From Phoronis australis (lineage: Eukaryota; Animalia; Phoronida): 64,000 nucleotides of DNA. The notes beneath the pieces were generated by a model. The model made no database searches and was not told the origin of the DNA. It worked only from the letters and a program-made list of their open reading frames with translations. The stretch lies in NCBI GenBank assembly GCA_002633005.1, contig NMRA01000038.1:891329-955328 (forward strand), written 5' to 3'. The position numbers and the translations under genes were made by a program. Each line of letters starts with the position of its first letter. The stretch's first letter is position 1. This document shows positions 25,801 through 51,400 of this stretch, one piece after another.

Positions 25801-28800
25801 TGTACCCACTCGGCTGAACGCATCCACTTAGGCAGACATCGCCTTCGACTTACTGCTTAAGTATGGAATGTTCAAATTTCGTCGTTTAAGGTTACATAGG
25901 AACCTAGAAAAATGTCGAAATATACTAAATGTGGAGCTCCCTGTCTTGGAAATAGTCGATAAGATATACATGAAACTCCAAGGTACTGCGGTATGCTTCG
26001 TATGTTATGCTTCGTATGTTTTGCTTCGTATGCTATGCTTCGTATGCTATGCTTCGTATGTTTTGCTTCGTATGCTATGCTTCGTATGTTATGCTTCGTA
26101 TGCTATGCTTCGTATGTTTTGCTTCGTATGCTATGCTTCGTATGTTTTGCACAAAGTTAACGCGGCACATTTGAACAAAAAGTTATCAAAAATAGGACTT
26201 TCATGGTTAACATAAAAAAACTCAAAAGCTACGTGAAGTGAGAAACGAAAATTGCAAGAAATTTTGACATTTCATTTTTAACATTTCTGTTTTGCTATGA
26301 AATCTTTTTTTGCAAAATTTTACTAAAACGACATGGTCACGTGACCTAATAAAAAATGAAATTCTACAGGTCATTCCGTTTACCTCTTGTTAAAACATAT
26401 AGTTCTGCAGATACTTAGAGAAAAAAACGGACTTAGCGACAAGGTCCTACATAATCATAAACGCTTATGTGGAGTAACCGTAACCTCCTTCAATAATAAT
26501 AATAACGAACTTTCTTAAAAGTGCCAGTGTGTTTGTGAACGTAAGTCTTGTGACAACTCAAGTTCTCAAACTGCATGCTGACCTCTCAGAGACAAGGTCA
26601 GTTTGAGCAACACAATGCCATATCTGGATGGGAAAATGCTAACTTTTATCCGGTGCATGAAATCGCTCCGTTCTGATAACAGAGCACTTGTTTTAAAAAT
26701 TTACCGAGGATTTTGCGGGAGAAATTCGACAGTTTGGGTAAATGCACACCCCAGACTTCCAAAAAATTTTATTTTCAAATGCCCATGCTCAGCCAAACCC
26801 TACCTCGATTATTCAGTAAATGGGGGGTGAGGCGCCCTGGATGTTTCAGTAACCCATTTGTGGTCCAGGTCAGGCTAAAAGAGTAGCCAATGACCTTGCT
26901 ATGCAAATTTACACGACTGTCCAACACCAGAACAGTTATGGGATTTCAGACAAGAGGGAAGAACCTTTCAACCAGTGGCTTCATTGAAATGCTGGTACCC
27001 GCCTAACACATGATCAAATATTTGCTCGTCGATATGTACACAAACATTTATTTTCTATCACTCAAAACTGCAAATGCATAATAAATTATTACCCACAGAG
27101 TGCTAACAATTCTATTAACAAGACTGGTACTGACACTGAGGAAAGCCATACTGGACTTAGGAAACTGCAAATTGGCCATGAACAGCTGAAATGTTAATCA
27201 GATCATACACAATAAATTCACCAGTTCAGTGGATGTCACAAGAAGTAGCCCTTGGGCATTAACAGACAAATGAAATTCTGGCCATAACCACTGAATACAG
27301 ACACAAAGAGAGTAACTCTCCAGAACAAAAACAAAGACTATTTTGACTAGAGTGCAAACAGGACTTATCTAAACCAACTGGAGAATCAGTGTCAGTAACT
27401 GATGGGGTGCAGACGCTAACCCCCGATAGTAGTGTAAAGTGCTAAGTACCCTCAGCACTCTGGATATTCAATTCCCTGCAACACCAATTGTTCTGTACGT
27501 TGTCCTCTGCACTCACAACAAAACATGGCATGATCTTAACTTCAATTATAAATCAGCTATAGAAAGTTAAGCTTACATCTGACATTTGCACTCTCCAACA
27601 GATGCCATTTAACCAGTGGTAGACATGGAGGAACTGATATTTTTAACAAGTACTTTAGGAAGCATGATAACAAAGTTGACATTTCCCTGGCTAAAGTTGA
27701 TTTAAATCACAAAGTTAAATCACAGTAAAACCTGTCAAAACTAGACAGCTTCCTCAGTACAGACGACCTAGAATTCTAGTGATCAACAAAGAAAGATCTA
27801 TCGCAATTTTCAAAGAGCAAACCATTTCCACATGTTTTGGGATAACTTGCAAGTTATATAACTAATTTCATCTTGCCAATAACTACTCTTGTACACATAT
27901 TGATTTACATCTTGCAAACGATCTCTCCATACATAGAGCTTCTTAAGTTGATGAGACACCTGCAGCCCAAACTGCCGTAGGTAATAAGCGATTTTATCTA
28001 AAAGTGTATGTCTTTCTAATTATCTCCACAAACTGCAGATCTCGGGGCTTGGAATGACCAGTGACAAAAGGGAGGATTCAGAAACATTTCCAGTTGATGT
28101 ATCGCTCCACAAACAGGCTTGTGTGACAGAAATATTTTTGGTGTTGTAAATTTTTTTACATAAATAAAGTCAAAATAATGATAAAAAGAGACGAAAAAGA
28201 AGAAACTGGAAATCAAATATCAGGAAATTGAAAACCAAAAAAGAAAAAATCCTCTTAAAAGAGGAAAATTCCAAGCCCTGAGGTCTGCTGAAATCCACGG
28301 CCACTGTGCATTGAAGTGGGCGACTACATCGCTTTTATGTAACAGTTCACAAATCACGGTTCACCATGCAATCTGACCAGTTTGAATTTTACAGCCAAGA
28401 GTTTGCCTCAACTGTGTGCGATTTGGAAATCAATGCGACGAGTTTTAACTCACCGGGGACAACTCGTTTCCTCAACAAAACGGAACATCTTGGATGTATC
28501 ACGTGAGCTTAATGCACAGATTTCAAGCAGTTAGGCACAAACCCACAAGTATATGGATTTCAATTACATTTATGAATTTTGGTATTCCTGTCGCATTAGA
28601 ATTTCCTGTTATGGAAACACTGAATACCAAAATGGTTAACTCCTACGTCCGTCCTGTGACAAATACTTCGGGATGGGTTGGCTAAAAATATGTTTATGCC
28701 AAAAATAGCAACAAACGCAGAACGGCACCAACAACACATTGTTGCTGGAACCGCAGGACTCNTATCGCTCCACAAACAGGCTTGTGTGACAGAAATATTT

Positions 28801-31800
28801 TTGGTGTTGTAAATTTTTTTACATAAATAAAGTCAAAATAATGATAAAAAGAGACGAAAAAGAAGAAACTGGAAATCAAATATCAGGAAATTGAAAACCA
28901 AAAAAGAAAAAATCCTCTTAAAAGAGGAAACTTCCAAGCCCTGAGGTCTGCTGAAATCCACGGCACTGAGAATTGAAGAGGGCGACTGCACCGCTTTTAT
29001 GTAACAGTTCACAAATCACGGTTCACCATGCAATCTGACCAGTTTGAATTTTATTCAACTGTGTGCAATTTGGAAATCAATGCGAGGAGTTTTAACTCAC
29101 CGGGGACAACTCGTTTCCTCAACAAAACGGAACATCTTGGATGTATCACGTGAGCTTAATGCAGATTTCAAGCAGTTAGGCACAAACCCACAAGTATATG
29201 GATTTCAATTACATTTATGAATTTTGGTACTCCTGTCGCATTAGAATTTCCTGTTATGGAAGACACTGAATACCAAGATGGTTAACTCCTACGTCCGTCC
29301 TGTGACAAATACTTCGGGATGGGTTGGCTAAAAATATGTTTATGCCAAAAATAGCAACAAACGCAGAACGGCACCAACAACACATTGTTGCTGGAACCGC
29401 AGGACTCAGCCTTCTTGTAATTATGGACATGTGTGAAAATGTGCCAGCTAAGACATTGGTAATAATTGGGTGTTCAGGCAACAACTGACTGCAGCCGCCA
29501 TGAGCATGCCCTTTTCAAAAACAGACACATGCCGCCAAGAATGAACTGCAAGAAGCATACGCTAGCAGGACACCTGACCTCTGCAGCAGACAAATCAGAT
29601 AAACCGATCACTCTTCCATACCAGTCAACATAGGGAAATTTTTCAGGTGAACAATTTTGCACTGAAATTTGAAAATTTGCGATACAACTGAAATTCTCCC
29701 TGGGTGAGCAGTAGGACATCCACACTCCGACAGTCACAAGCTGGAGAAGTAGGTACCTACTTCACAAGGGCTCGTTCTAATCAAGCCTGTAAGCCACAAT
29801 TGCAAATTACGCTCAACCCAGGGTGAAATAGCAAAGTTGTGTACATTGCGATGTAGATGGACATCTTTGGAGGCAGATGAAGTCTTTAAATCCTTCCAAC
29901 TCGAACTAAAAATCCTTCGTTCCCTGACAAAATTTAAGACTGAACATCATTACAGTTACTGTGCTCGAGTCCAACGGAAGCCCAAAGAGGGCTATGGGGA
30001 TGTCACTAGTTTGCTAGCCACGTCAATAGGAGGCAGCACAGACGGGGGACCTGCCTAGGTGTTCCAGAAATGGTATTAACCCCAAGAGGCTCAGTTTATT
30101 CCTTATTTTAATCGTAAATAAGTTAGCTTGCAGCCTCCACTATAGTGTAGGTGAGCACATGAAAAACATTACTTAAGCTCCCACCGTTTCCTGGCAGACA
30201 CAACTAGAAAGACTTGTGTCACAAATCAAATTACCTGACTAGACCACTGATTGATTGGGCTCTTACTGCAGATGACAATAAACAATCTGACCAACTTAGT
30301 ACACAATGCTGTGGATGAGTGAGATTTTGCTTTCTATCATGTTTCATAAACAGCAAGCACTAAGGTAATGCTTTGCAGATTTTCAAGTTCGGTAGCGCAG
30401 CTACCATTACCTCAGATGATATTAAGTAAAATAATGGGCATTCAAAACAATGTATAGGCAATTGTGACATTACCTTTGTCTGAAATTGATGGGATTTAAA
30501 CGTAATCCCAATGGCAAGTTTTTCTACTCTTATTGATATAAGTACCACGATTTCCCGCAATAAAGGAAAATGGACAAGATAAGCAGAATCTTACTTCTTT
30601 CATGGAATTAGAAGTTTCAAATGGCATTGCTCTTCCCTTAGCTGAGCACCAACTAGTCAAATGCTACTAAGCGAAAATCCCAGGTAGCCAAATAAACCCG
30701 AGGTCGGAAGTCAACAAACAAAAGAACGGTCATGCTGCTATGGATTTATTTCAAATTACGCAAGCAATTCCCAGATCATTTTAAGTTATCATTTTGAAAT
30801 AGTAAAACAAAATTTGCCAACTTGGAAAATGGAAAATATTGTTATTTTATGGTTGCTACAATGGATTGCTCCAATCTTGAAAACACAATACCAGGGTCTA
30901 CGTATTAGCTGTGTCCACCGGACAGTTGCTCTAGTGCAGTGTACACAGGAACGAGATGATCGGGTGTAGGCGACGGCAAAAATAAGGATGCGCAACTTTA
31001 TATCAAAATAACACCCGATTCTGAGGTAGTGGAACATATTGAAGACTGCAGGCCAAGTTGACAGACCTAGAGATCACAGCAAAGTGCTACCTTTCTACTT
31101 GACATACGCGTAAAGCAATTTTCTCACCGATTCCATTTAGTCAGCAGTGGTAGGTATGCAGTGCTCTCCACGACCTGTTTTGACTCGATGCGGTAACGAG
31201 TTTGGATTTTGCCACGTCGAGTTTGGGGAATGCGCGTCAAGTTTAAAAATTGCCGTGTCAGGGTTAAAATCTTGGCTGGCTTAGCACTTCAGCCCACAGC
31301 ATCAAATCCGAGCCTCATTTTACCAACAGAAAACATAGTTTACTTTACTAAGAGGCAGCTAACAGTACCATATTCGCCGTAAGAAGGCGCCCGGGGTGTT
31401 TAGTAAATATGTTTCGGGGATGAGGCGCTTATTGTAACCCAAGGCGGTTGAAACCCGGTTTCTTTAACGGGTGAAATCGGAAGCTAGGATTCATCAAATT
31501 TACGCTATGTGATGTATCTATAGCCTATGACAAGACTTTCTACAAAACTGTGGCCCCAAACTTGGGGGGGCGAAGGTGTCCACTATAAGTGGGGAATTTT
31601 ATCAGGGGTATTTTACTTTAAAAACACCAATTACGAATACATTAAACAAGTGATTAATGAAGCAATCCCTCTTAAAAATAACGCAACAGTTTTACGGCAT
31701 TAGAAACTTTCTGAAATTAGTGCCAATATTTATTTTTTCCCCGATACGCTACCCGTAGTTTCATGGATAGTTCCCGAAGACTAATAATGTCTGCAATGAC

Positions 31801-34800: not shown

Positions 34801-36114
34801 ATACCCTCAATGATTTGAAAACGTTTATGCTGAAATGATATTATGCTTTACTGTGCCCTTCTTACCACTATCGGTGTGTGAAAACTGCATATGTACAACC
34901 CATGGTCAAGTCCAAACTAGTCCCTCAACACAGAAAATTCAGGTCGACTGCGTGTGCAAGTTGACCTTAATGCTATGCTGAAACTAACAACTGCTAAATC
35001 TCAAATTCATTCTACTGATCAACACGTCCTTTGATAACCAGCAAAAACATGTTTTTGCACGGCACCTCGCTTGTTCTATTGTCACAGACACAATACAAAA
35101 GTTTTTAAACATCAACAAATTTAAATTTGTGATAAGTGATTAACACACTTTCATAATATGTTAAACATTGGTTTAAAGTAATAAAAAAATTTCCACAGTG
35201 ACAGTTCACTTTGACTTAACCCTAAAAGTTAGAACCTGAACCCTAAGGATAACAACCCTGGCCGAATTGGACTGATTGACATGATAGAATCACTCTAGTT
35301 TGATTGACAGGTGCATCATCAGACCCCTAGATAAATGGACCTTTTCAATGCTCCTCCATGAGATATGGCACACAATCGTGACCTACCTGAGAGTTCCGAC
35401 GAGATGAGCGAGTCAGAAGGGGCATCTCCATACCAGAATATCCATAATTCTTTCGTGAATGGTGGTGAATTGGGCTTGCTCGATTCATTAGCAAGAACCT
35501 TGCGCCAGACACTCAGGATGTCCGACTGTATGCACTTGACATATGTTGACAGTACGGGGTCATCTGTAGGGTCAATGCATTCTGCATATTCAGATTTAGC
35601 ACGGAGCTTTCGCCATTTGATGCCACTTAAATCCGTCTGCAGAAGGGATGAAACGGTGTTAGGCAATGCACAAATCTGTTGCAAAAAAACTAGTACTCAG
35701 CATCAATAGTAACCTCACGCTGAATGTAAAACGTGTTGATAACATATATCACGGCAATATCACCCCCGCAGGTGGATTGTCCCGTGATCTATCATGCTAT
35801 GACTCGTTAACAACTGGTGAATCGGTAAATTTTGGGAAATTCTACTTCTTACCATCTTACAGGGGCCGCAAATTCTGATACATGGGCTCGGCAAACAAAC
35901 ACCAAATGTCAGTATGTAAATTCCCTGAGCAGTACTAATAGTCATGTAAACGATCCACTCAAAATTAATTTGGGGTCACCTTTTCACCAAAGGACACTTG
36001 ATGAAATCCAAAAAGTCCAATTCCGAGAATCGGAGAATGACTTACCAGTGAGAAGAGATTCGTGTGGCAATCTTCAAGGCTACAGCCATTTCCCGCGGGT
36101 GTTGGGTGACTCAT
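1500..36114 (-). CDS. MED13: Mediator subunit 13 (MED13/skuld), 5' part: coding exons 1-7; gene continues beyond the left edge
   Basis: Spliced translation [23 protein letters not shown]|[10 protein letters not shown]...ELWIFWYGD...|[20 protein letters not shown]|[17 protein letters not shown]...|[19 protein letters not shown]...|[13 protein letters not shown]...WKQFYPI...|[10 protein letters not shown]...LTPPTSP...VAERVWQD matches the Med13 N-terminal domain; all junctions GT-AG with compatible phases. Confidence 0.97.
2647..3046 (+). mobile_element. Non-autonomous TTAA-flanked DNA transposon (Kolobok-like), copy 1
   Basis: TTAA|AGATGTATTTGCATGCT...AGCGTGCCAGTTGCACT|TTAA; AG..CT termini, imperfect TIR; inverted homolog at 44268-44672. 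Confidence 0.7.
3096..3147. repeat. 17-bp tandem repeat x3
   Basis: (ACCACTTACCCACATGA)x3. Confidence 0.9.
3469..3639 (-). CDS. MED13: MED13 exon 6
   Basis: tttcag acceptor, [15 protein letters not shown]...WKQFYPI...CVEVIV, donor GTAAGT, phase 1->1. Confidence 0.95.
4564..4733. repeat. 41-bp minisatellite, ~4 copies
   Basis: (CACACCAGAGGCCAATGGCATTGGAGGTGGATGAGCCTCTC)n. Confidence 0.93.
6061..6206 (-). CDS. MED13: MED13 exon 5
   Basis: ttccag acceptor, [48 protein letters not shown], donor GTAGGT, phase 2->1. Confidence 0.95.
6417..7751 (+). mobile_element. TA-flanked TIR DNA transposon (CCGTA-type termini) carrying a decayed HIRAN-like ORF
   Basis: TA|TTGTATTCGCCCTAATAAGCAC ... GTGCTTATTAGGGCAAATACGG|TA (~22-bp TIR); deleted relative at 31365-31635. 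Confidence 0.78.
7312..7610 (+). pseudogene. Frameshifted HIRAN-domain-like coding remnant
   Basis: [21 protein letters not shown].../[39 protein letters not shown]...GLQIP, resembling the IRGYHVYK..W.P..GE.L...N..D..A...GHVP...GLEIP pattern. Confidence 0.65.
10646..10732 (-). CDS. MED13: MED13 exon 4
   Basis: tttcag acceptor, [28 protein letters not shown](S), donor GTATGA, phase 2->2; absent from the ORF track. Confidence 0.95.
11080..11164 (-). CDS. MED13: MED13 exon 3
   Basis: tttcag acceptor, [28 protein letters not shown](R), donor GTATGG, phase 1->2. Confidence 0.96.
13748..13950 (+). mobile_element. tRNA-derived SINE, copy A
   Basis: Head with A-box-like CCTAGTGG and B-box GGTTCAAGTCC; body homologous to 48686-48875. 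Confidence 0.75.
15517..16360 (+). mobile_element. Diverged or truncated member of the same HINE-like family
   Basis: ACAAGAGCAACGCAGAGC start; AAGATCCTGCAAGAGGTTAAGGAGATAGAGCCGCGGACGCC and GCCACTACATGGCGCC blocks shared with other copies; right boundary approximate. Confidence 0.6.
22005..22555. mobile_element. MITE (PIF/Harbinger-like) with internal 25-bp tandem repeat
   Basis: TIRs GGTCCTTTCATACTAAC / GTCAATATGAAAGGGCC; internal CAGTATGAACG subrepeats; (CGCAGTTAACAGCCCCAGTTAACAT)x3 at 22084-22170; degenerate inverted relative at ~23520-23750. Confidence 0.65.
24344..25552 (+). mobile_element. HINE-like element, copy 2
   Basis: ACAAGAGCAACGCGGAGCATTGAAATGCGCCCACA start; TATGCGATCACATACAAATACGTGGGCGGCATAA end; subterminal inverted repeat ATGCGCCCAC/GTGGGCG(G)CAT. 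Confidence 0.82.
25992..26150. repeat. 14-bp minisatellite, ~11 copies
   Basis: (WTGCTTCGTATGYT)n. Confidence 0.93.
28100..29407. repeat. ~650-bp tandem duplication split by a single N (probable assembly overlap)
   Basis: 28100-28761 repeated at 28763-29407 with the N at 28762 exactly at the junction. Confidence 0.92.
31159..32101. mobile_element. hAT-like non-autonomous element with apparent 6-bp TSD
   Basis: GGTATG|CAGTGCTCTCCAC ... GTGGAGAACACTG|GGTATG; subterminal CGAGTTTGG repeats. Confidence 0.72.
31365..31635 (+). mobile_element. Internally deleted fragment of the 6417-7751 family, nested in the hAT-like element
   Basis: TACCATATTCGCCGTAAG start; shares AGGCGCTTATT...TCAAATTTACGCT.TGTGATGTATCT...CCTATGACA and TTAAAAACACCAATTA blocks. 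Confidence 0.7.
32296..32556. repeat. 26-bp minisatellite, ~10 copies
   Basis: (GATGCACGCAGTAGCGTTTCCATCAC)n with variant units. Confidence 0.93.
35387..35636 (-). CDS. MED13: MED13 exon 2
   Basis: ctgcag acceptor, TDLSGIKW...DDPVL...[11 protein letters not shown]...SELS, donor GTAGGT, phase 0->1. Confidence 0.96.
36046..36114 (-). CDS. MED13: MED13 coding exon 1 ([23 protein letters not shown])
   Basis: 69 nt, ATG at 36114, donor GTAAG; matches conserved NGxSLEDCHxNLFxL. Confidence 0.95.
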
Positions 36115-36393
36115 TGCTCACTCCATGATAGTTCAAAGATTTGAGTAAATAAAAACGATGTAAATGTACTCAGATAGTCCATAAATCGGGAGAAAATCCT
36201 TGAAAGAGACAGATTTTCAACAGAAATGGCGACAGCAATGGCGACTGTAATGAACAACAAGGCGGTAAGGGTCACTGGACCCCGATTGGTTTGAGCCAGT
36301 CACGTGGGGAAAGTTGACCTAGAAATGAATGGTAAGGGGAAGTTGTGCACAGATGATTCTCTAAGCGATTTACCGTGTTTGTAAAGACAAGTC
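36115..36393. promoter_or_regulatory. Bidirectional promoter and 5' UTRs shared by MED13 and BLTP2
   Basis: 279 bp between divergent ATGs; YY1-like AAATGGCGAC (36224) and CAATGGCGAC (36236), reverse CCAAT (ATTGG 36285), E-box GTCACGTGG (36299), ETS-like GGAAGT (~36338). Confidence 0.85.
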
Positions 36394-36452
36394 ATGTCCT
36401 TTTACTTGTGGCTTGTGTTCTTTATACTCTTGATACCATGGTTTATATCGAG
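36394..36452 (+). CDS. BLTP2: BLTP2 exon 1 (N-terminal transmembrane anchor)
   Basis: ATG TCC TTT TAC..., hydrophobic 19 aa, donor AG|GTAAGA, phase 2. Confidence 0.88.
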
Positions 36453-39400
36453 GTAAGATTTTCAACTCATTGGTTGCTTGGTTAGCAATAAAACGCTGAT
36501 TGTAAATAAGCAGGTGCTCGGAATGCACACCCCTTGTCACTTAGTACACAATTTAATTCTCATAGTTAGGAGTTTGGCATTGATCATGGCACATTATCAG
36601 TTTCTGTCGTCCAATCTTTCTTGTTTCTTAGAATATGTTGTTCTTCAGATTTTCCTTGAACTCGTAATTAGCGATAATTTTTTTAAAATTTTTTCTCGAA
36701 AATGTACTAGCCTATCAGGTTGTAAATTTACAAAAAAGTAAACTTCCCACTCAGATCTCATTGTCTGCTCCATAAAACTAAAAGTATAAGCACCCCCCGC
36801 CACCCCCCATGTAAAGCCCACGCACACTGTTCCTCCTGTATAAGCCCACCTTAGTGCTGAGGTATAATTATTGTCCAACCCCGTCTGACCTCCTAGACCT
36901 CATCACATCAAACTTCTCTTTTCCGTTTTATCACTAGACACTAGACTCTAGATAGTCTAGTCGAAAAATGGCCCTCCGTGCACCCCCCGGACTTCAACTT
37001 CAGCATTCAAGTTGAATTTTTATGAAGGAAAATATGGGTGAAAACGGAAAAAGGATGCTAACAAGCCGAAAAAATGTCCTACGTATGTTTTTATGAAAAT
37101 TAGTGCCGCCATTACCGATTTTGCATTATTTTGCAATATGCCGCCGACTGTTTCATATAACTGAAAGAACTAAGTGTCTGGACATATATTTGGTGGGTCA
37201 AACATTACATTAGAACTACAAATAAGTGCTAAAAGGTATCTTTTACATGGTACAGGTATAAAACACTCAACACATGGAGCAGATTAGTACTGTGTGGGAC
37301 ACTATAATTTTCTATTTGTATCCAAATTCAGGGTTTTTGATGTTGACCCATCCATGAAAACAAACTGTGACATTGTAGTCCAAAGGTTTAGAAGTAAAAC
37401 ACACCTTGAATACAAACTAACATCAAAATACACAAATGGCCTGCTGACACATGTATGTCAATCGATGCGAATCCAATGCTGGGGACAGGGAAAATTGGAC
37501 TGCATTCGAAATTAAGGCAGCTATCGACGCAGGTGCAAAAATCATCGTTATAAGAAAACAATGAGGTTGAAGCTTATCTACTGACATCAAAGAAAGAACA
37601 CTCTCTACCCATGTCTATTCTCCATTTAGACTCTATAAACGAACAAGGCAATTTTACAATCTTAAGCAATGTCAGAGGAACAGCAACCGAAAAACTACAG
37701 CAGCTTCATGAAATTCAGGACGAACGTCTCCGACAGTCATGTGATTCTTCACATTGTATACAGTCCGTGTGTGATCAGATTCCTTCTGTTCTTCCAAGTG
37801 AATTTCAAGAAAATGGGTTATCACAGACAAAACTATGAACATTTCACTGTCAAATAAGCTCAATTTGATCTGAACATAGAACAGGCGCTGACTAACAGGA
37901 CCATCGAGTCTGGCCGTGAGCTCAGCTGGCTTTTTTCTGATTTTTTTGCAATTTATAAGAAAGTCGATTTGGCAAGTTTGAAAGCCAAAAACAGAAAAAA
38001 AAACAACACGACCAAATCAAATCAAAGACCTACCAACGTTACAAATGTCATTCCCAGAGGAGTGTAATCGTATCGTCTGCTCTTCGATGTGTGGCAGATT
38101 CAAGTTTTTTGGGAGAGTGCAAGGAACCCCGAATATGTAATTTCTTCAGAAAATACAGTTTCAAAAACAAACTGTTAACTAAAAAAGTATCTCAGTTTCA
38201 TTTAGTATATTGTAAACAAGTATACAACATGACTTTCTAAAACCGCTCTAAGGTGGTGGCGTGTTACAACTATTATTAAAATCTCTTGGTCTATTTACAC
38301 CGACCTTTTGTCTGTTTACACTGTCACGACGTTTCGGTCGGTCTATTCTCCGGCCATCATCAGGTGTTCCTGCGTTCTTAGAAGAGCGAGCACGGATATG
38401 TGGTACACTCATCATGGTGTGATTTTTTTGTCCGAGGCAGGGTTTGAACCCACGACTTCAGAAACTACAGATAATTTGACTCCAGCACCTGATCGACCGA
38501 AACGTCGTAATAGACAAGAGGTCGGATGTAAATAGACCATGAGATTTTAATAATAGTTGAGTATACAACAGAAAACAATAAAAATATGAAATTATCATGT
38601 ACATTCACGTTAACAGACTATCTCCCTAAGTTTAGTAGAATAAGGCCATTGGTAGGTACTCGTGGAACTATTTCCGTGGCAAAAAATAGCATGCTCACAA
38701 TCCGCTATGTCAGGTCATGTTCTTACGCCACTTTCCGTTTTAACCACCAGACTTGAGCTAGATCAAATTCTCATGCAGGTAAGTCTCATGGGAGAGTCGC
38801 AGATGCATCTATTGCCACAGGTCGTGGGGTTGTGGGTCAAGGGGGTTGTGGGTGTCGAAGGGGTTTTAGAACAATCCGTTAAATCCCAGACATTGAGTGA
38901 GCCATTGAACATGCCAGAACTCATGAAGTACTGCCTGATACCCATGCCCCCTAGTCTTGGAACACCAGGCATTTTTTCCAAGACCAACAAAGCCTCCATT
39001 TTGCATTATCTTCGGAACGACATTGCGCCAGAAGACATTCATTATACTGAGGATGATCTGTTCATCCAAGATGGTTTTGCATTCCTCCGTGCGTTAGCAA
39101 ATCTCCCTCCAACATGTGGTAATGTCTGTTTACAAGTACTTGATCAAATGGTGTCGAAGAAGCACTTCTTGTTCTCAACTGTCAGCTATACCACCCTGAA
39201 TCTCTCAAAGCTAGGAGCGGTTGTGACGTGGCAGTTCAGAGAAAATAATTTTGGTTGGATCAGCTACACAAAAGCCGTATGACTTCAAAACTTTTCTTGC
39301 AAACGATGACAAAAAAGCAACTCTGTCAACTGTTACTGCAAATCTGGAGTGGTGAGAAGGCAGTTTCCAGGTAGAAGAAAACTGAGATGGCCATCCTGAT

Positions 39401-42400
39401 TGTAGACGAGCATCTTGTGGCGATGAAGTCTGTAATCTTTTTTCTGAACAGAACTTACTTAACTAATTTGCGATGTCATAATGTAATTATAAAAGTGATT
39501 TTATGTTTCCGGTTCATACTCAGGAGACCTCACATATCTACAGTAACCTCCAGTACGCTGCCTCACTTGGTACAGAAACGACGTCGTCAGAATCCCTGAC
39601 ACTGATGTCTGTCATTCTGCTGCAGGCACGCTATAAAGTTGCCTTTATATCTAGATACAGGGTCTGGAAAACATCCGCGACTACTGAATCTCTCCATCCT
39701 AGCAAAATCCTTGGGAAAAGACTACTGTGAAGCTCAACTTGGATTTTACGTATACACTAGAGAAGATTGCACCAGTGCGTTTAAACGTAAAGGAAAGGTT
39801 GGCCCCTTTAAAAAACTAGAAAAGAATCCAAAATTTCACCTTGCATTCAGGCAACGTGGCGTTGATTGGGATGTAAAATGTATGAGTTCAACTGCCTCAT
39901 GTGCGGTCAGAGTCGTGAGTCATCGAAAGATGCTACTCATGCCAAGATGTTACGTAAAAGAGTTGGTGAAGATGAAATCCTCACAAGTCTAAGATTGACC
40001 TTGCTCGACTTCCCTCGTGCCAGTCTGCACTGAAACCTCACATCCAACAAGTAAATCACCGTATCACCTTGTACAAGAGTGCTTGCGAACCTATAAATGA
40101 GCAGCCAAAACCTTGTGACGAAGGACAAGGGTGGATGAGGACTGACGAAAGAGTGGTAGAACCTGTGTGGTCATGTTGTGCCATCTTACCAAACTCACTG
40201 ATTGATTTCTTGCTCACCAATGTTTGTGAAGTGGACACAGAAGAGGAAAGTGGAGGGTTGTATGGAAGTTTCCCGGAAAGCAATTAAAGTGACATGTAGT
40301 GTTAGAACATGTAATCAGTGACATCACCAACTAATGATTGTCCATATTTCTGCAATCATTTTCCGGCGTTTTTTTCCTTGAAATATTTAAAACATTTGTT
40401 GAAAATTGGCTCATTAAAGAGCTGATTATATAAACACTGAAAGTTGCACATTCAGTGTTTGTATTGGCTTATGTACACTTTCAGTGTAGTATTGATTGTA
40501 AGTAACCATATAGTACAAATTACATGACGTAATAGATTATGAAGAAAATTATTCCATTGTAATGCTTGACCCTAAAATATGGGTTTTGACACTTGATTTG
40601 TTCATTTACAAGAATAAGAAAGTGAGATATCATAAAGTAACGAAAAATCGGTAATGTCGGCATTAATTTGCATAAAAACGCACGTGGGACACTTTTTCGG
40701 CTTGTTAACATCTTTTTTTAGTTTTCACTCATATTTTAATGCAACTTAAAAGTTGAAGTCTGGGGGGTGCATGGGGGGGGGCCATTTTTCGACTCGACTA
40801 AGAGCACAAGCTCATGCAATAGAAGCTCATGAATATGGATAGAAGTTCATGGCCTCATCTATTTTAGCCCAATTCACATTTTTAAGAACTCCCTAGTTAC
40901 AAGCCCATGGTATTATACTAGCTTGGATTCGGTCTCAATACCTGTTTATCAACAAAAGTTTCTGTTGTATATACTTGTTTTATCAGCAACAGGTCCTGAA
41001 ATATATTTTTCTTTTCAATTTTTCCTGGATGAACATTGAGTGTTCAAAATAAGACCAGGAAATTTCGAACAGGAACTTTCAAACAATGTCTAGGATGGAA
41101 CCAGCTTGCAAGTTCATCCAAGATACCTAAGTTTCTACAAGATATTACCATTTGTGTATTTTTCTGTCATCCATTTACATTATGTTGTATGTTTTATTGT
41201 ATTTCAGTGTATTGTACTGTTTTACATTACTATAATGCACTCGTTGAGGGTGTCTATCATCAGTGCATAAACTCGTTTTTTATTTAAGTGACTTAGCCGG
41301 CAATAGTCTGATGTAACGTGCCCGTATCTTGAGAACCAGTTTGATGCCTGTTATTCAGTGGAGAAAATTGGTTCTCAAAATTTGGGCACATTATATCCAA
41401 CCATTACCGAGTTAGCCAACTAAACATGGTGAAATGGAGCTTCCATTAATAAACTTTTATGCGGTTGACAGTTTCATCCTACAAAATTTTGTTGAACACA
41501 GCTCTTTACAACAACAATTGTTTGAATCATGCAAGCAGTATGATTTTTCACATAAAGAAATTTTGTCCTATTTGGAGCAATTTTGCCATGCGAGTCGTAA
41601 ACGAAGTCAAGTCTCTTGGAAGGTACGGTACATCATCAACTTTTTGGCATAATTTTGCCTGTGTTTTTATGTATTGTGCCTGTGTATGTATTGTCTGCTC
41701 GTTTCTACCAATTTCAGAGTAATTGCTTGGATTGCCTGCTGGTTACTGGAAAGATATTTGAAAATTGAAGCGAAGGTTGAAAAAGTTGGATACTTCAACT
41801 TCAGAAATGTGACCATTCAACTCCGTGATAACCTTGTTGTAGTAAGTAGCAACTTTATTGTTGTTGATGTTGTTCGTTGATACCGTTATCATGCGCACAC
41901 CCAGGGTAGGCACTTACATCTCCCTGGATGCTGCAGGCATACAGGGGTGATGGTACATCCCCACTAAAAGTTACGAATTTCGAAATACAGGAAATAAAAT
42001 CAAATGAAACATGCATATATGCACATGGAGTTATAATTAACACATACCATAAGTCAGGAAACGATTCAGTCACGATAATTTGAACACATCGATAAAAATC
42101 TATCGCGGTTTGCTCAAGTTTCTCTTACCGGGTGCCATTTTGAGGAAGTTCCGTGAAGTCACACATGTTGACAAATAAAAAGTCCAAGGGACACAAATCT
42201 TACTAATTTCACCGGATCCTTCCCATGCTATTTTGCATGTGTCACGCGCCAGCGTCACATGCTTCGCTTACAAGTCTTTGCCTAGCTCACGTGACTCAGT
42301 TGAAATACTTTGTAGTTATCGCGGGCGTGGTGAAAATTAACGGTGACCAAAAAAGTGGAGTTGGAATTCTTCGCCAAAGTCGCATTAATTCTCGTAACTA

Positions 42401-45400
42401 AGCTTCATCGAAGATTTGTGTAGGAGTAGAAAGGATCACTGAAGAAAGTGAGCGCTTTTTTATGCGCCCACATATTTATATGTGGTCGCATATTGCCGTC
42501 ATCTCTGTCTGGGCGTCCGGCGTCCGCGGCTGTATCTCCTAAACCCTTTGCAGAAACGTATTGAAATTTGGCAGGTGTGTTCCTATGGGGTCTACGACAG
42601 AGGGCGACTAGTTTCGGACCAATCCAAATACCGCTGTGCCCCCTAGTGGCAATTTTATTTTTTTACGTTTGCCTCTGTATCTTCAAAGGTCTTCAACTGA
42701 TTTTCATAAAATTTAGTACATAGGCATCTATTAATGAGTTGCTGGTATCCTCCTGTTTTCGGATTGCTCCGATGGATTTTGCGCCATCTAGTGGCCATTT
42801 TTACTATTTTCGAGCCGTTTTTTGGCATTCGCTCCTCTAACAACCATACCACTCTAAAGATGATTGTGAAAATTGGCATGTATGGTCTTACTATGAAGAA
42901 GACAGTTGACAATGATTTTCTGATGACTTCGACTACTGTGGCGCCACCTAGTGGCAGTTTTGTTTGTTTTTGTGCCCATGGCTGTATCTCCTAAACGCTC
43001 TATAGGATCTTTATTAAATTTAGCAAATGTAATTATATAAAGTCGACAACAGACGAAGACGAGTTTCGGACAGATCGATGTACCTATGTGCCACCTAGTA
43101 GCAATTTTAGTTTTTTACGTTGATCGCTGTATCTTCAAAGGTACTCAGATTTCCACAAAATTTGGCACATAGACATCTATTAGTGAGGTGACGCTAGCCA
43201 TTCATCTTCAGATTGATTCAAGGTTTTTTGCGCCACCTAGTGGCCATTTTTGTTGTTTTTGAGTCTGTTTTGTGGCATTCGTCCCTCTGTCAACCAAACC
43301 ACTCTAAGGATGATTGTGAAAGTTGGCATGTATGTACATTCTATGAAGGGGACGGTTGCGGATGATTTCTGATGACTGTGGTGCCTCCTAGTGGCGGTTT
43401 TGTTTTTTGCACCCATACCTGTATCTCCTAAGCCCTCTGCAGGATCTTTATTAAATTTAGCAGGTGAATTTATATGAAGTTAATAAGAGAAGATGACGAC
43501 TTTTAGACGGATCCGATGAACACTGTGCCCCCTAGTGGCAATTTATTTTGTTTACCTCTGTTTCTCTGAAGTTCCTCGGCAAATTTTAATTAAAGTTGGT
43601 AAATGGCTTTCTTTTAAAGAAACGATGACATTTTTTGGTTTTCATACAGATTCGACGTATTTTGTGCCATCTAGTGGCCATTTTACAAATAAACAACCCT
43701 AAAAGCACACCATTTGCGATGCATTCGTGGGTGCATTTCAACGCTCCGCGTCTCTCTTGTTAAGTAATAGTTTTAAGTGTGGAATATATTTTTGACAAGG
43801 TGAAAATTCCGGATTTGGCCTACTGCCTGTTTAAAATACATGGGACGAAATGCGTACAGAAAGCAATGGGAAGTATTGTCAGTAGCCCCTAACCGGCCAA
43901 CCGAGGGGCTACATGTTGCCTACACCCAGTGGTGCTCGGAAGGGCTCGAACGAGCCTCCCCCATTTGATGAAGTGGGTAAAATGGTCCAACTCAGAGAAA
44001 CGAAAAGTAGGAAATGAGGCAAAAGTCCACTAAAAAAGACGAGAACTATCAAAATTCGGCAAATGCACAATTCATAGTTCTGAACGTACCCCGTGAATCA
44101 TAGTAAAAGTCCACATTCTAAAAAATTCGATCCCCCATTTTTAGGCTGGGTACTGGAAAATAAGTTGGTCATTGGTCTTTAGAGGCATTGGAATAGAAGA
44201 TAATCATTTACATAGGCTGTGCACGCTCATGGTTTTGGTACAGAACTTGAAAATGGCAAAACATTAAAGTGGAACTTGCACGCTAATTCCTTATCTCTGT
44301 GATTGCTTTGCCAAATTAGTTAAAAACACAACATATAGTGACGATTTGATTATAAAACAGATTGAAAATTGTCAAATGTTTTTTAAGAATGAGTTTTGTG
44401 GCAAAAATGATGCGGTGCAAATCACTGAACCTTGTCCAATAAGTATCGTGATGTGGTGCTGGGGAATAACACAGCATGATGCGAACTATGCGAGTCCACA
44501 GGTACATCATTGGTGCAAAGGTCACCTGTTCGCTGAATTTTTTGTTTTCACATTTACAAGTTGTCAGTGAATACAACTGCACTTTGTTTAGCTTAGATTA
44601 TGCTGAAATAGCATTGTCATTTAGTTCCTGCATGCTCTACATTAGCATAGTTAGGAGCATGCAAATACATCTTTAAGTTTGTCCTATTTATCTTTTATGT
44701 GGAAGTGGAAAATAGAATTTCACTTGTCTTCCATCTTGGTGAGATTTTACGTAATGTACAACTAAGGGCGGGAGAAGGGGGGGGGGGTGTGGTCTTACTA
44801 TGATAGTGATTTATACATTTTTTGTTGCTTTTTACAACCTTCACTCTGTTGGAACTAGCGCAGATCTAGAGGAGTCCAGGGGATCCGGGCCCCTTCTCGG
44901 CCGCTTTTCTATTTCTGTAATATTGGAATGTCTTACTGTGTCTGCCCAGGGTCATAATTCTCTCTGGCCACAGTTCTAAATCTGTGCATCTTTGTCCAGT
45001 TTTTCTTCAATTTAGGTGTTAATAATGGTGTGCTATTTTGGAAAATGGAATTTTTATTTTTTACTGATACACACATAAATTTAAATATTCATTTAATTTA
45101 ACGTAACTTAATTTAATCTATCTTAATTTATTTAATTTAATTTATTGCTGGGAGAGGACCATGCTGTATATTAGCCTTTGGCTAAAGCATGTTTTGAAAA
45201 TCTATTGTGTTTTATCTTCTTCTATAAATAAAATTTATTACATTAGTATAAAAATATTTAGCTCAGAAAGCGAACCATTATGTCCAGGAAATTAACTGAA
45301 CTGTCTTCATGCTTAGATTTCAAATGAACTGTTCTTTATTTTATATTTCTAGCAGCTGGATTGTTTATCATTCTCAAGCTCATTTGTGAATAATGAAATC

Positions 45401-48400
45401 ACGTAAGTCTTCTGAAGTAGGCTTATTGGTTATCAGTTGTGTTGAGACATTTTTTCTACTTGACATAATTCCCAATATTTATGATTATTTTTTTAAAGTA
45501 CTGTTATTCATATAAATATATAAATCTTAAACTGGCGTGGAAATGTGTATCACAAACAATTCTAAGTCTGGTCAGCTCACCACCTGTAGCCACATCATGT
45601 GACCTAACAGATATAAGTCCAAAAAAATTTCTACCCCAACTAGGACTTGAACCCTGGACCCTCTGCTAACCGTGCAGAATCTTTTCAGACTTATATTCAT
45701 TTGGTCACGTGATGTGGTCACAGGTGGCGTACATGCTGACCAGACTTAGAAATGTTCACGATATTACTATCCAGTAGATGACTGCTGAATTATCCACGCA
45801 ACATTGAAATTCACTATTCTGCCAGACAGTAATCAGGCCTATGGTGGACAGGCATTCAACGCCACCTACAGATCCCATGTAGCGTGGACGGGAGGTTTCA
45901 ACCTAATGCTATAAACTGGGTCTTAACACCTTTCCCGCTTTCATAATGCCGGCAAATTTCTACTGCGGTGCGGTGGGATGTACCAATGTCTTACGAAAAA
46001 GGCAACCTTTTGATATATAAATAGATGAACTAGGACATCACGTTTCATACATTTCCCACTGCGAAGAAGAGTCCGCGCCAAAGCCAGTGGCCACGGCTGA
46101 TAAAGCGGGGGAATTTTGATCCTAGCTGGTGTCAAAAAGCTAAAGTAAACTGGTCGACTTAAACAAATCAAATAACAGAAGGGGGTGACGGGGCGATTTG
46201 TTCCTCTGCTATGTAGTAATTGAATTTCTGTCCACCCAAGTCAGAGTCATGATCAAGCAGAAGTCATTTTTGTGCTTGATACTCTTGAGAGCGCCAGTAA
46301 GAAAAGTCCTCTATTAGCTTGGTTCAATAGTGCTTGAACCTTCGACTTCAAAATATAGAATGCGCTTTTACTTTGTTTATTCTGGAACATTGCTACAATG
46401 TAAATTTGGAGATACTTTTGCATGTCTAAACTGCTGTTTTGTTGAATTTTCCTCTAGTAAACCATTTGCTGTCTGCGTTGGTGATGTCAGAGTTGAATTG
46501 AACAACACCACGTACCGTCAGACTAGTGTGGATAATGCAGAGAGCACATCTGATCCTGGCCAGAGCCGGTCAAAATTGTCGTCTGCTTGGCTTCGTATAC
46601 TACCATGGATTCAGGTATTTCACGTCACAGTTGACGGGAACAAGCAAGGCAGCACGTATTTTTGGATACTTTTTTACATTTATAAATGTTTCTCAAGTTT
46701 GAAACAATAACAAAATTCAAATCACATGAATTCACATTATGTTAATGTTTTTTTGTTTTCGAAATATTCTTAATACACAAGTTATAATTTAGTAATGAAA
46801 TTGTTTTAAGAATTAAATTTCAGTAGAATGCAGTGTCCTTGAGTTAACTTGAAATTCAAGTTGAAAGTGACTTATGGCTTCGTCAGCAGCCAATCTTGAA
46901 TTGTGAAGTTTCAAATACTGAACGCATGACATCCTATTCACAGCTGAAGATGTAATTGTAATATGTACATTGTTCAACAATCTCTGTGGTTTGAACTGAG
47001 ACAAAAATAATTGCTAAAACTGCTATTTCCAAGACTTACAACATTGCTACAATTACTGAAAATTTTACCAAACGTTTTGTGGTGACAACTGTATCATATA
47101 GAACTGTCTCGGACTTCTCTTGTAAAACGATTACTACATACGGTTCAAGATTGTGGCATGAACGTTAACACTCAGGCAGCCATATTGTGGCATGAACGTT
47201 AACACTCAGGCAGCCATATTGTGGCATGAACATTAACACTCAGGCAGCCATATTGTGGCATGAACGTTAACACTCAGGCAGCCATATTGTGGCATGAACA
47301 TTAACACTCAGGCAGCCATATTGTGGCATGAACGTTAACACTCAGGCAGCAATATTGTGGCATGAACATTAACACTCAGGCAGCCATATTGTGGCATGAA
47401 CGTTAACACTCAGGCAGCCATATTGTGGCATGAACGTTAACACTCAGGCGCCAATATTGAGGCAGGAACGTTAACACTCAGGCAGCCATTTTGTGACATG
47501 ACCGTTAACACTCAGGCAGCCATATTGTGGCATGAATGTTAACACTCAGGCGCCAATATTGTGGCAGGAACGTTAACACTCAGGCAGCCATTTTGTGGTA
47601 TGAACGTTAACACTAAGGCAGCCATATTGTGGCATGAATGTTAACACTTAGGCAGCCGTTTTGTTTGCTTCCCAGACAGTTGAGAACATAAAAACATGCG
47701 GAGATGTTTTGTTTTGCGATACCTGGTGTGACTGGGCCAGATGTATTTAAGGTGGAGAGTCATCACGAAATGTTCGTTAATCAGGATGAGGGGGTTGCGA
47801 AGTGAATGCTATTTCATTGTTACTGGTATTTTTTTGTTGCTCCTTTTTATCGCTGCGCTATGTCAGCGTTATCAGTATTTCAGTAGTTCTGTCTTTATCA
47901 TTCCAGATGACAAGCGTTCATGTAAAAAGCATCAATCTGATGTTGCTGAAGTCGGTTGCTGCCGAGTGCCTTATTCATTGTCAGGTTCAGGATTTTCAGT
48001 GGGAGTGTTCCGCTGAAGGTGACAGCCTTGAGGCTTGCATCCGTACAAGTTCAGTTGCAGGAAAAATCATTCAGGAGGTCGAGCAGGTAATAAGATCTGT
48101 TTGTCAAAACGTATGATATGGTCTGGTTGCAACGGCATTAATCACTGTTGAAAACACGGAATTAGCTGAATTTTGAAATAGCCCCGCCGTATTGAAATTC
48201 ACTCTCCCGCCAGACAGCGATCAGGTCTTTGGTGGGCAGGCGTTCAACACCACCTACAGATTCTATGTAATGCGGATGGGAAGTTTCAGCCTACTGGTAT
48301 AAACAGCGTTTTAACACCTTTCCTGCGATCATAATGCCAGCAGATTGCCACTAATGTGTGATGGGATGTACTAATTCCTTACAGAAGAAGCAAACCTCTT

Positions 48401-51400
48401 GAAATATCCATGCATGAACAAGAACATCATGTTCCATGCATTTCCCAGTGCAAAGAAGAATCCGCACCAAAGCTAGTGCCTGCGACTAATGAAGCAGTAT
48501 CATAAGTCCCCTATTTGAATCTGTGTTTCTGTGAATTTTGTTGGTAAGAACAATGACATACTGTGTGATGCTTCCACTTGTGATGACTGGGACAACGACG
48601 ATGACTGAGACGATGATGATGATTAACCCCATAAGTGTGAGTTATCGAACTGGTGAGGGTAGGAAGCTCTAAGCTAGAGCTGTAAGGAGGCAGTGTGGCC
48701 TAGTGTGATAGGTGCTCGCTTTCTTTACTCGAGGTCGTGGGTTCGAGTCCCACTGTGTCACACTCCAAATCCTTGAGTCCGGTTTCTAGCTCCTAAGCTC
48801 GGTTTTAATTATGTATTAATAAAACATGGTTCCGGGTGATCAGTGCAATGGGCCCACACTGCACACACCTGGTACAACGAGTATCAGACCGCCTGCAATT
48901 ATTTTTTAAAATGGATGTTATTTTCTTACATTTTAGGAAGGTTTGGTTCAACCCCAGCTCGCTCATTGGTCATCAGGCTTCCAGGTGTTGTTACTAGTGA
49001 ACACCCTCAAATTGGAGCCTCAGGTATGCCGAAACAGTTGACTGCGTGAAATTTTGGTGCACTAAAGTGACTCAGTCATGAGAGCCAATTTACGGCAAAT
49101 GGGTATAAAATCAAAATCATAATCTGGCAACGTCCTGCTTGCAGAAAATGTATTCTTTCACCAGGTTTAATTCTGGTTCTGTAGATATTTTGCTAAAAGA
49201 CTTGTATTTATATGGCTGCGGGTTATCACTTAACAAGTGTTATTCTGTTTTTCTGGTCATTTAGATCAGTGTTTTTTCAGTAGCAAAAAATCTGAAATAC
49301 GTATGTGAATGAAATTCAGTCAAGGCTGTCGTAATGATGTCTCGGTTCTTTATTTTCATTGGTCAATGGTTCTTACACGCAAGTAGTTATGGTTTCGTTA
49401 TATATTCTGCATCAGTTGTAGTGCTGAAGTGATTCTATGACTTGTCACCGACATCGTCGCTAAAGAAAAACCTCTAATTAAAATCCATTCCAAGACAGTA
49501 ATATAGACTCAATGAACTCACTGACAGTAATAGGTCTCAATGAATAAAGAATTTCTATTTCCTTGCAAACCAAGAAATCACTTCTTTTGATAAAAGAACT
49601 AGTTTAGATCACTTTTATGGCTGTAAGTGGTTTTCAATTGAGAGTTTGCTTCTTAGGCAGAACACTGGTTTTATAGTGATCAAACTGATGCATTGTGGAT
49701 CAGAAACCTATTCACTTAAGGATTAAATGTTTCAAAATCTACACAAAATGAATTTTTTGTTTTTCAGTTATTCAAAGTCTCTCTTCGTGCTCCGCGAGTG
49801 TTAGTTACAGAGGGTCTGATACAGAGGTTACAGGCAGCGAGACAGGACGCACCAATGGGCAAGTTCAGCAAATTTAAAATTGCATTTTACTGTTGCAGTG
49901 TGCATTTAGTTCAGGGGCACTACGATTGACCGTGTATTCATCAATATACTAAGGCCCCTTTTTATTAGTGAAAAAACAGCTGTAGACTTTCTTTTGGCCA
50001 AATAAACCTATGCAGGTTTACACTTTTAAATTCACATGGAAAATGCCTCAAAGATGACCGCAAATTTCGCCTTTAATGTTGTGAAGTGTTCTTGTCGTGA
50101 ATTAATTTAGTTTAGGATATGCTGTAGTGGAGAAGTGAAGTTTTTTATTTTGTGCATATTCTCAGAAAAAAAGTAAGTTTTTAAGAAGATTTTACGTTTA
50201 TTTTTTGTTCACATGGTCTATATGATACAGTTATCACCACAAAATGTTTGGTAAAATTTTCAGTGTTTGTAGCAATGTTGTAAGTCTTGGAAATAGCAGT
50301 TTTAGCAATTCCTTTTGTCTCAAATTGACAAATTTTTACCTTATTTAGAAGTGAGCTTAATATTTAAGCGAGATCAGTCTGGTTATCTGTACTATTTTAC
50401 AATTGTTTTGAAAGCAGGGATTTTCACTTTATATATGTTTCATAATTGGTTTGTCCGAAATTAGAAACGTAATGTTCTGTGATGTCATTTCAGACCCAAC
50501 AAGATGCCACCAGAATGTCTCTGCGCACAGCCAATCGGTCTCACCTTTGATGTCTTTTCTGCAATACATTCCTAGAGTAATAGACTTGACCATAGAGGGA
50601 AGCACTGTAAAGTTCTCAAGAGAAACAGCCCAACGGTTAGTCATAAGCAAATGTCCTGTTCGTCTAAACCTATGTGAATTAGCATCCTCCAAAACTTTTT
50701 GTTTAATTTTCGCTATTCAGTTACTTGGTCATTTACTGTATTTACTACTGAACAGTTACTCCCAAACACGCACATAAACACACACAAACACTCACACACA
50801 TGCACGCACACACTCACACACATGCACGCACACACTCACACACATGCACGCACACACACACACATGCACATTCGTTGTTACACAGTAAGCTATGGTTAGC
50901 CTCATACATTCATTTACTCTCTGTCCACTCTCATATATTGATGCTTTCAGCTCCTGCTGAAGCCGTAAACATGGAAAACAAGAAATACGGCTTGCATGCA
51001 TGGAAAAGGGTAAAAACCCTTCTAATATTTCCTAGCAAATATATTGATAAATAGAAGACATTTTTGGTTGATATCACATGCTTAGTGCTCGCCGTAATCT
51101 TGGATATTTTACACGTTTTGTTTTTCATCAGGGATTTAACTGTAGCTGTTGGACTTGTGAGTGCTACTGCTAAACACAGTCGACATGAACCTGGTATGGT
51201 GACCTGTGGTGACCTGGCTGTAAAAATAGAGGGTAGGTTCTAGTCATTATGTGGTTATCCAAACGAACAAACTTCTGAGTTGTTGCGATAGTCAAATTTT
51301 CAAGGAGCCACCTTATGTTCGTCCTGTGAGAAAATGACTACACCAATTTCGCACAAAAATAATTGTCAAAATTGTACTTTTCAAAATTTCAAGAGCTAGC

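Follow-up and report, generated by a model that had tools for sequence, protein, structure and literature searches.

The question raised by this locus is what kind of mobile element left, in the 64,000-nucleotide stretch of the Phoronis australis genome that we analysed (the window), a 330-bp insert combining two inverted arms, a hammerhead ribozyme motif and a tRNA-like segment. We read the insert, with a probability of roughly 0.55, as one copy of a repeat family, namely, a non-coding, tRNA-headed, non-autonomous passenger copied in by a Penelope-like reverse transcriptase-endonuclease; SINE-like passengers of this class of enzymes would be a kind seldom described. When all readings that make it a Penelope-type insertion with a tRNA-like part are taken together, we are nearly certain of them.

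The insert is flanked by an exact 11-bp direct repeat (38219-38229 and 38560-38570); as a chance benchmark, an 11-mer was common to 43 of 20,000 random position pairs in the window lying 341 bp apart (within +-5). A self-search of the 64-kb window aligned the inverted arms, 38267-38343 and 38491-38559, at 82% over 78 columns (E = 4e-17), and found no second copy of the 330-bp element. The whole insert is predicted to fold into one long hairpin (z = -12; 0 of 100 shuffles), and the stability of the local folds of ribozyme, head, tail and body was not above that of shuffles. The target site duplication (TSD) and the two inverted arms given in the preliminary description are therefore both present, but the structure is not symmetric, since a 37-bp tail (38230-38266) is found at the left side only. 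Read on the minus strand, the order of parts is the inverted arm, the tRNA-like segment (38492-38429), an A7 run (38429-38423), a 56-nt body (38422-38367), the hammerhead (38366-38325), a 58-nt 3' segment (38324-38267) that contains a T4 run (38281-38278) and is by read depth the most abundant part of the family, and the AC-rich 37-nt tail. Accordingly, what had been called a reversed tRNA-like 3' half between the arms does have a B box and an A run, but it lies upstream of the intact hammerhead and in the same sense.

The minus-strand motif at 38366-38325 is a minimal type I hammerhead with a predicted cut after 38328, the end of the GUC triplet. Stem I pairs 38366-38364 with 38327-38325 (3 bp), the core (38363-38357) is followed by an extra U (38356), stem II pairs 38355-38350 with 38341-38336 (five pairs and one C.A mismatch), and GAAA (38335-38332) runs into a loopless palindromic stem III (38332-38329). 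The claim of a complete minimal hammerhead is borne out by a hammerhead descriptor, for which this was the sole match on both strands of the 64 kb, compared with 0.03 matches per resampled window (30 resamples); the Rfam check scored no hammerhead family at E <= 10. Its assignment to the Penelope type also holds, as the minimal hammerheads described from metazoan Penelope-like elements (PLEs) have the same extra base between positions 9 and 10.1, the G10.1-C11.1 pair, a short stem I, a long stem II and a loopless palindromic stem III (15.2-16.2), and the motif itself shows no difference from that description (PMC4209133). According to the same source, such motifs do not cleave singly in vitro and cleave weakly as dimers. 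In our fold predictions the active stems are rare in the monomer (stem I probability 0.04), and in the whole element 38340-38325 are paired with the inverted arm at probabilities of at least 0.96, so modelled, the intact ribozyme would be sequestered in the fold-back hairpin and this copy is likely inert. Cleavage would be expected only from a dimer or with the help of a protein, and a protein-assisted ribozyme has been described in a Penelope system (PMC11167929).

We examined the family in two public runs with the same species label, X1 and X2, which come from one sample. Depth was taken at 80% likeness, and 16 contig pieces and 15 of 61 joints are listed, with 691 further loose ends outside the listing. 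While single-copy places have an X1 depth of 42-47, values of 38,000-53,000 are found at the ribozyme, as predicted for a multi-copy family. The depth reaches 113,000-139,000 at 38272-38309, steps down over the tail to 59,000 and then 25,000 in its outer part, is 35,000-41,000 over most of the body and 10,000-16,000 over the head, and falls to 2,180 at 38481-38499 and 427-971 over the right arm. This is a retro-type fall from 3' to 5', and it suggests that about 1000 copies contain the ribozyme and that a few hundred contain the head, although summed contig depth is not a copy number. Loose ends of 70 X1 and 62 X2 contigs at 38229/38230 lead into unlike, AT-rich flanks (agreement 0.38-0.43), and 18 X2 contigs end at 38264. 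Thus, the family has two 3' ends about 35-37 bp apart, and the tail is optional. Five of the listed joints begin at 38224-38229 and pass over the complete element, three of them with AT-rich letters of about the expected length in between; these are host-repeat relatives that hold the target site once, that is, empty sites, and are not identified as the other allele of the present locus.

The core of the ribozyme is kept among the copies, as had been anticipated. Among the 38 rows of the table of positions that differ in at least 25% of cases, only 38359, the free position N7, and 38345 in loop II fall inside the motif, and the window departs from the X1 majority at 9 of 263 positions. The tRNA-like part is likewise linked to the ribozyme elsewhere, since the ribozyme continues unbroken into the head in 5 of the 16 contig pieces listed, one of which reaches 38492. 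Each of these five has 20-24 letters that differ from the window; therefore they represent other loci, and the link between head and ribozyme is not a nested accident of the present one. The right arm agrees with the majority at the two positions that correspond to 38307 and 38314, where the left arm departs from it, indicating that the arms have diverged since insertion. Only a single unit is found in the window, and no backward joint, as expected of tandem units, occurs among the 15 of 61 joints listed.

The head (38492-38429) contains an exact B box on the minus strand (38450-38440; chance expectation 0.77 per 64 kb), followed in register by the acceptor strand and the A7 run. The length of this run varies among copies, the depth dips at it, and loose ends at 38428 continue into the head. 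The Rfam tRNA model gave a weak, 5'-truncated match (11.8 bits, where the gathering score is 29; E = 3.5 in a search of 4227 families), ARAGORN found no tRNA, and no A box is left in the present copy, where the inversion replaces the 5' part of the head. Two of six weak matches at E = 8 were to tRNA-Pro; we presume a serine or leucine tRNA origin. Thus, the head is a tRNA-like remnant and not a tRNA gene: the B box and A run of the earlier claim stand, while the match to a tRNA proper is weak and lacks the A box. With the majority letter at 38442, the B box of the copies is more like the tRNA consensus than that of the window is. On the other hand, T4 runs at 38281 and 38242, ahead of both 3' ends, could stop RNA polymerase III (Pol III) before either end is reached, which, judged from the letters, would count against a simple Pol III transcript. 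RNA reads from runs of the same species cover both strands of the element with no pile-up of starts or ends; they come mostly from other copies (7 of 556 at a likeness of at least 99%) and have no bearing on cleavage.

The insert therefore shares features with two kinds of element. As in PLE insertions, it has a minimal type I hammerhead near the 3' end, a 37-bp optional tail with two 3' ends, and, at its 5' end, an inverted 5'-truncated copy together with a short target duplication. As in tRNA-derived SINEs, it has a tRNA-related head with a B box that is also found in other copies, although the tRNA model match is weak. tRNA-derived SINEs are mobilised by LINEs through a shared or a poly(A)/simple-repeat 3' end; a 3' end of the LINE type is absent here, where the element ends in the hammerhead and the PLE-type tail with neither poly(A) nor a tandem repeat. 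The body is multi-copy and has no Rfam match. No reverse transcriptase (RT) or GIY-YIG family was detected in 150 frames of the window or in the present copy, and the frame opened by the ATG in stem II, where the frame of the anole element begins, stops after four codons (codon 5) and again at codon 14. A short non-coding family is weakly favoured because this frame is closed and because two contigs of single depth extend beyond the head. Against a passenger, a closed frame would also be expected of Penelope elements whose frame contains an intron or begins at a start codon further on, and the depth of the head is only about one third of that of the ribozyme, which is partly an edge effect. 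More specifically, and only tentatively, at somewhat less than even odds, the family may be a Pol III SINE that depends for its mobility on the enzymes of Penelope elements and not on LINEs, with the hammerhead and tail as the handle for the RT-endonuclease, and with the present copy as a record of priming on both strands from two start sites.

Another possibility, clearly less probable than the passenger, is that the unit is the pLTR of an autonomous Penelope-like element, a repeat beginning with a tRNA-type promoter, of which the present copy would be a short, 5'-truncated inverted insertion. Its architecture is that described for truncated autonomous insertions (PMC8557442, PMC3846280), most genomic minimal hammerheads are reported to be truncated elements (PMC4209133), and its length of about 260 bp is near that of the Adineta repeats of 181-218 bp (PMC3846280). 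However, the closed stem II frame argues against it, and the two single-depth contigs run unbroken for 876 and 1352 letters past the head, which a unique flank fits somewhat better than a frame common to the copies. We consider it improbable that the tRNA-like piece is instead an old SINE or retro-tRNA fragment captured upstream of the Penelope end in one subfamily, with no role as a promoter. The A run behind the tRNA 3' end, the lower depth of the head, the T4 runs before the 3' ends and the described capture of unrelated DNA by pLTRs (PMC3846280) are all in line with such a capture, but the head occurs at hundreds-fold depth and at several loci, and its majority letter at 38442 points towards the tRNA consensus instead of away from it.

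How the fold-back itself arose can be read from the junction. The right arm (38494-38559, plus strand) is an inverted, 5'-truncated, tail-less copy of the family's 3' end in which 9 nt past the cut site are missing and one additional base is present. It stops at the tail-less 3' end, and the left arm stops at the tailed one. The two parts meet head to head at 38486-38493, eight letters that belong both to the head on the minus strand and to stem I and the start of the ribozyme core on the plus strand; about 2 chance matches are expected per 64 kb, therefore an eight-letter match placed at the junction is unlikely by chance. The right arm had been taken for a second hammerhead with part of the core and stem II deleted. 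The 9-nt gap behind the cut site is real, but the CACCTGA letters of its supposed core are equally the antisense of the tRNA-like head, and another copy (an X1 contig) is collinear through 38492. A partly deleted core is thus one of two readings; the right arm may have lost 18 nt after joining, or may simply start at 38494. Across the junction the depth drops from about 10,800 to 427, and two opposite-strand joints among the 15 of 61 listed (38276/38380 and 38338/38430, one contig each per run) mark inversions elsewhere. It looks, then, as if the fold-back is specific to the present copy and not the design of the family, contrary to the initial proposal of a family unit with two ribozyme arms.

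These features resemble the truncated inverted insertions described for EN+ PLEs, such as Pen2/Pen2a of Adineta (PMC3846280) and Poseidon of the anole (PMC11167929; see also PMC8557442), which have an inverted, 5'-truncated copy of the 3' end and a tail of 30-40 bp at one end (PMC8557442, PMC11167929, PMC3846280), target duplications of 8-10 bp (11 in the present copy), an overlap at the junction (15 bp at the inverted junction of an inverted pLTR with duplications of 9-10 bp in PMC3846280), AT-rich targets and a hammerhead near the 3' end. The Penelope enzyme has been described to cut AT-rich DNA, to cut and extend both strands, and to use two start sites that bound the tail (PMC11167929). 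We can thus propose the following course of events. A master copy would be transcribed from a tRNA-type internal promoter, or by read-through, and the partner enzyme would make one nick in each strand of an AT-rich target, with an offset of 11 bp. From one of these nicks cDNA synthesis would begin at the start site of the tail, and from the other at the start site that leaves the tail out. Head-to-head joining of both cDNAs at the eight shared letters (38486-38493) would then cost the head its A-box half and produce the fold-back as well as the duplication.

The surroundings of the element are probably an intron of a gene on the plus strand, to which the intact motif would be antisense. Stranded RNA shows low plus-strand signal over candidate exons at 36.4, 46.4 and 47.8 kb, the polarity of the library being fixed by reads of MED13, a confirmed minus-strand gene whose first exon lies near 36113. 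None of the 15 splice joints listed, out of 937, spans the element. The host gene is presumably BLTP2; no tool confirmed this name, so of the earlier statement that the intact ribozyme is antisense to BLTP2 it is the orientation that is supported and not the gene name. MED13 (36113, minus) and the plus-strand gene (36394) start head to head, 280 bp apart; the first exon of the latter is hydrophobic and ends at a GT donor at 36452, and the next MED13-like exon found lies near 11100, about 24 kb away.

This setting had led to the proposal that the sense copy of the ribozyme was crippled by selection. It is very improbable that the family unit is a fold-back with two ribozyme arms whose sense arm has been disabled by selection against cleavage of the host pre-mRNA. 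The right arm does lack two stretches needed by a ribozyme, it agrees at N7 with the window, whose letter there is the minority one, provided that its core is taken as that of a ribozyme, and retrozymes are described as depleted in introns in Xenopus (10.64898/2026.07.22.740005). However, the depth of 427 past the junction and the inversion joints elsewhere, one contig each, do not fit a two-armed unit, in another copy the letters of the core are part of the head, lone minimal hammerheads do not cleave in vitro (PMC4209133), and selection cannot be demonstrated from one locus. Since a truncated arm is expected from the insertion itself, a lone motif is hardly active and the ribozyme is predicted to be paired with the inverted arm, selection against cutting of the host RNA is not needed. 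Finally, that the insert is a miniature DNA transposon with terminal inverted repeats (MITE) is hardly credible, as, despite the inverted arms, the direct repeat and a different tRNA-cored fold-back family with two copies in the same window, the arms are not terminal (the 37-bp tail lies on one side), the depth falls towards one end, most copies have no second arm, and the arm itself is a 3' end that carries a hammerhead.

The element lies within a multi-copy host repeat (about 37500-40300; X1 depth 600-5600) with broken frames at 38656-39282 and 39606-39992, in which no Pfam family was found; we take it to resemble an Academ-type DNA transposon. The two copies of the other fold-back family, 45548-45763 and 56654-56840, have long inverted arms around a tRNA-like core of the B-box type and no hammerhead; in this second family the fold-back recurs, so that it may be a MITE whose centre is derived from a tRNA. 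Further exact B boxes are located at 13798, 48740 and 48945, and the segments 13748-14001 and 48690-48924, which are 70% alike, are probably another SINE-like family. A very abundant repeat at 42216-44019 (X1 depth up to 326,000), with internal duplications of 450-880 bp and relatives at 154-1410 and 24344-25555, has strongly one-sided RNA (up to about 310 versus 7). A 660-bp direct duplication at 28100-29407, 95% alike, meets at the single N of the window (28762) and is likely an assembly join.

We also searched public collections with a pattern built from the present motif, in which only stem I, positions 3-7 of stem II and N7 were free, so that the agreement of its matches in the core is circular. 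In metagenome contigs the pattern matched 70 loci with 51 distinct motifs. All three pairs of stem I are formed in 26 of the 51, and position 3 of stem II, mismatched in the window, is paired in only 28 of the 51. Outside the motif the 70 loci are unrelated to the present family (best match 41 bp at 80%). A B box within 400 bp upstream was found at only 1 of 49 distinct loci, therefore a tRNA head is not general among them, and a scan of 54 of their 101 long frames detected neither an RT nor a GIY-YIG family. Seven loci (L002, L008, L017, L020, L028, L035 and L036) have minimal hammerheads in tandem units of about 60-130 bp, which suggests retrozyme-like arrays of some host animal. No family members were found in viral contigs, where the degenerate pattern had 0 matches and one viral match was unrelated, and the exact 3' pattern had 0 matches in prokaryote genomes.

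Among known systems, the described EN+ PLE insertions differ from the present copy in that no coding frame is seen here, the frame from the stem II ATG being closed, and the Adineta PLEs are described with a TATA/Inr-type promoter (PMC3846280) and not a tRNA-like B-box head. The nearest likeness in composition is to Sm-alpha of schistosomes and Sj-alpha, tRNA-derived SINE-like elements with a hammerhead (PMC2770079, PMC6765202, PMC8490949), that is, short non-coding repeats in which a type I hammerhead comes after a Pol III-type head derived from a tRNA. The suggestion of a SINE/retrozyme hybrid belonging to no described family was thus overstated. By their descriptions, however, Sm-alpha and Sj-alpha have canonical hammerheads, often in tandem, whereas in the present element the hammerhead is of the minimal PLE form and is accompanied by a PLE tail and a head-to-head inversion. 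Non-LTR retrozymes and short non-autonomous PLEs (10.64898/2026.07.22.740005, PMC7229834, PMC8557442, PMC9977147, PMC6685494) are likewise non-coding, hammerhead-bearing or PLE-ended, and thought to use PLE enzymes; however, retrozymes are described as tandem units that release circles, while the present copy is a monomer with an inverted end, and the cited descriptions make no mention of a tRNA head. Helenus TRIMs have captured a tRNA-derived promoter in the terminal repeat of a non-autonomous retroelement, but depend, as described, on LTR retrotransposons and have no hammerhead (PMC10886601). Each part of the element therefore has a precedent, and its difference from Sm-alpha is the Penelope-type tail and the inversion; by analogy, it would work like a truncated Penelope insertion and be built like Sm-alpha. 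The combination of a tRNA head with a Penelope-type minimal hammerhead, tail and inversion was not found in the literature searched, and may be catalogued in Repbase, Dfam or subscription journals, which lay outside that search.

If the family is non-autonomous and driven by Pol III, its unit of about 260 nt defines what the Penelope enzyme needs for moving an RNA in trans, and the in vitro system of PMC11167929 could use it directly as a substrate. The pairing of a tailed arm with a tail-less arm also provides a testable model of how Penelope inversions form. If the unit is instead the end of an autonomous element, this would be a coding retroelement under a tRNA promoter, which is also unusual. 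If a Pol III SINE on Penelope enzymes proves to be true, PLEs would join LINEs and LTR elements as a third class of hosts for parasites derived from small RNAs.
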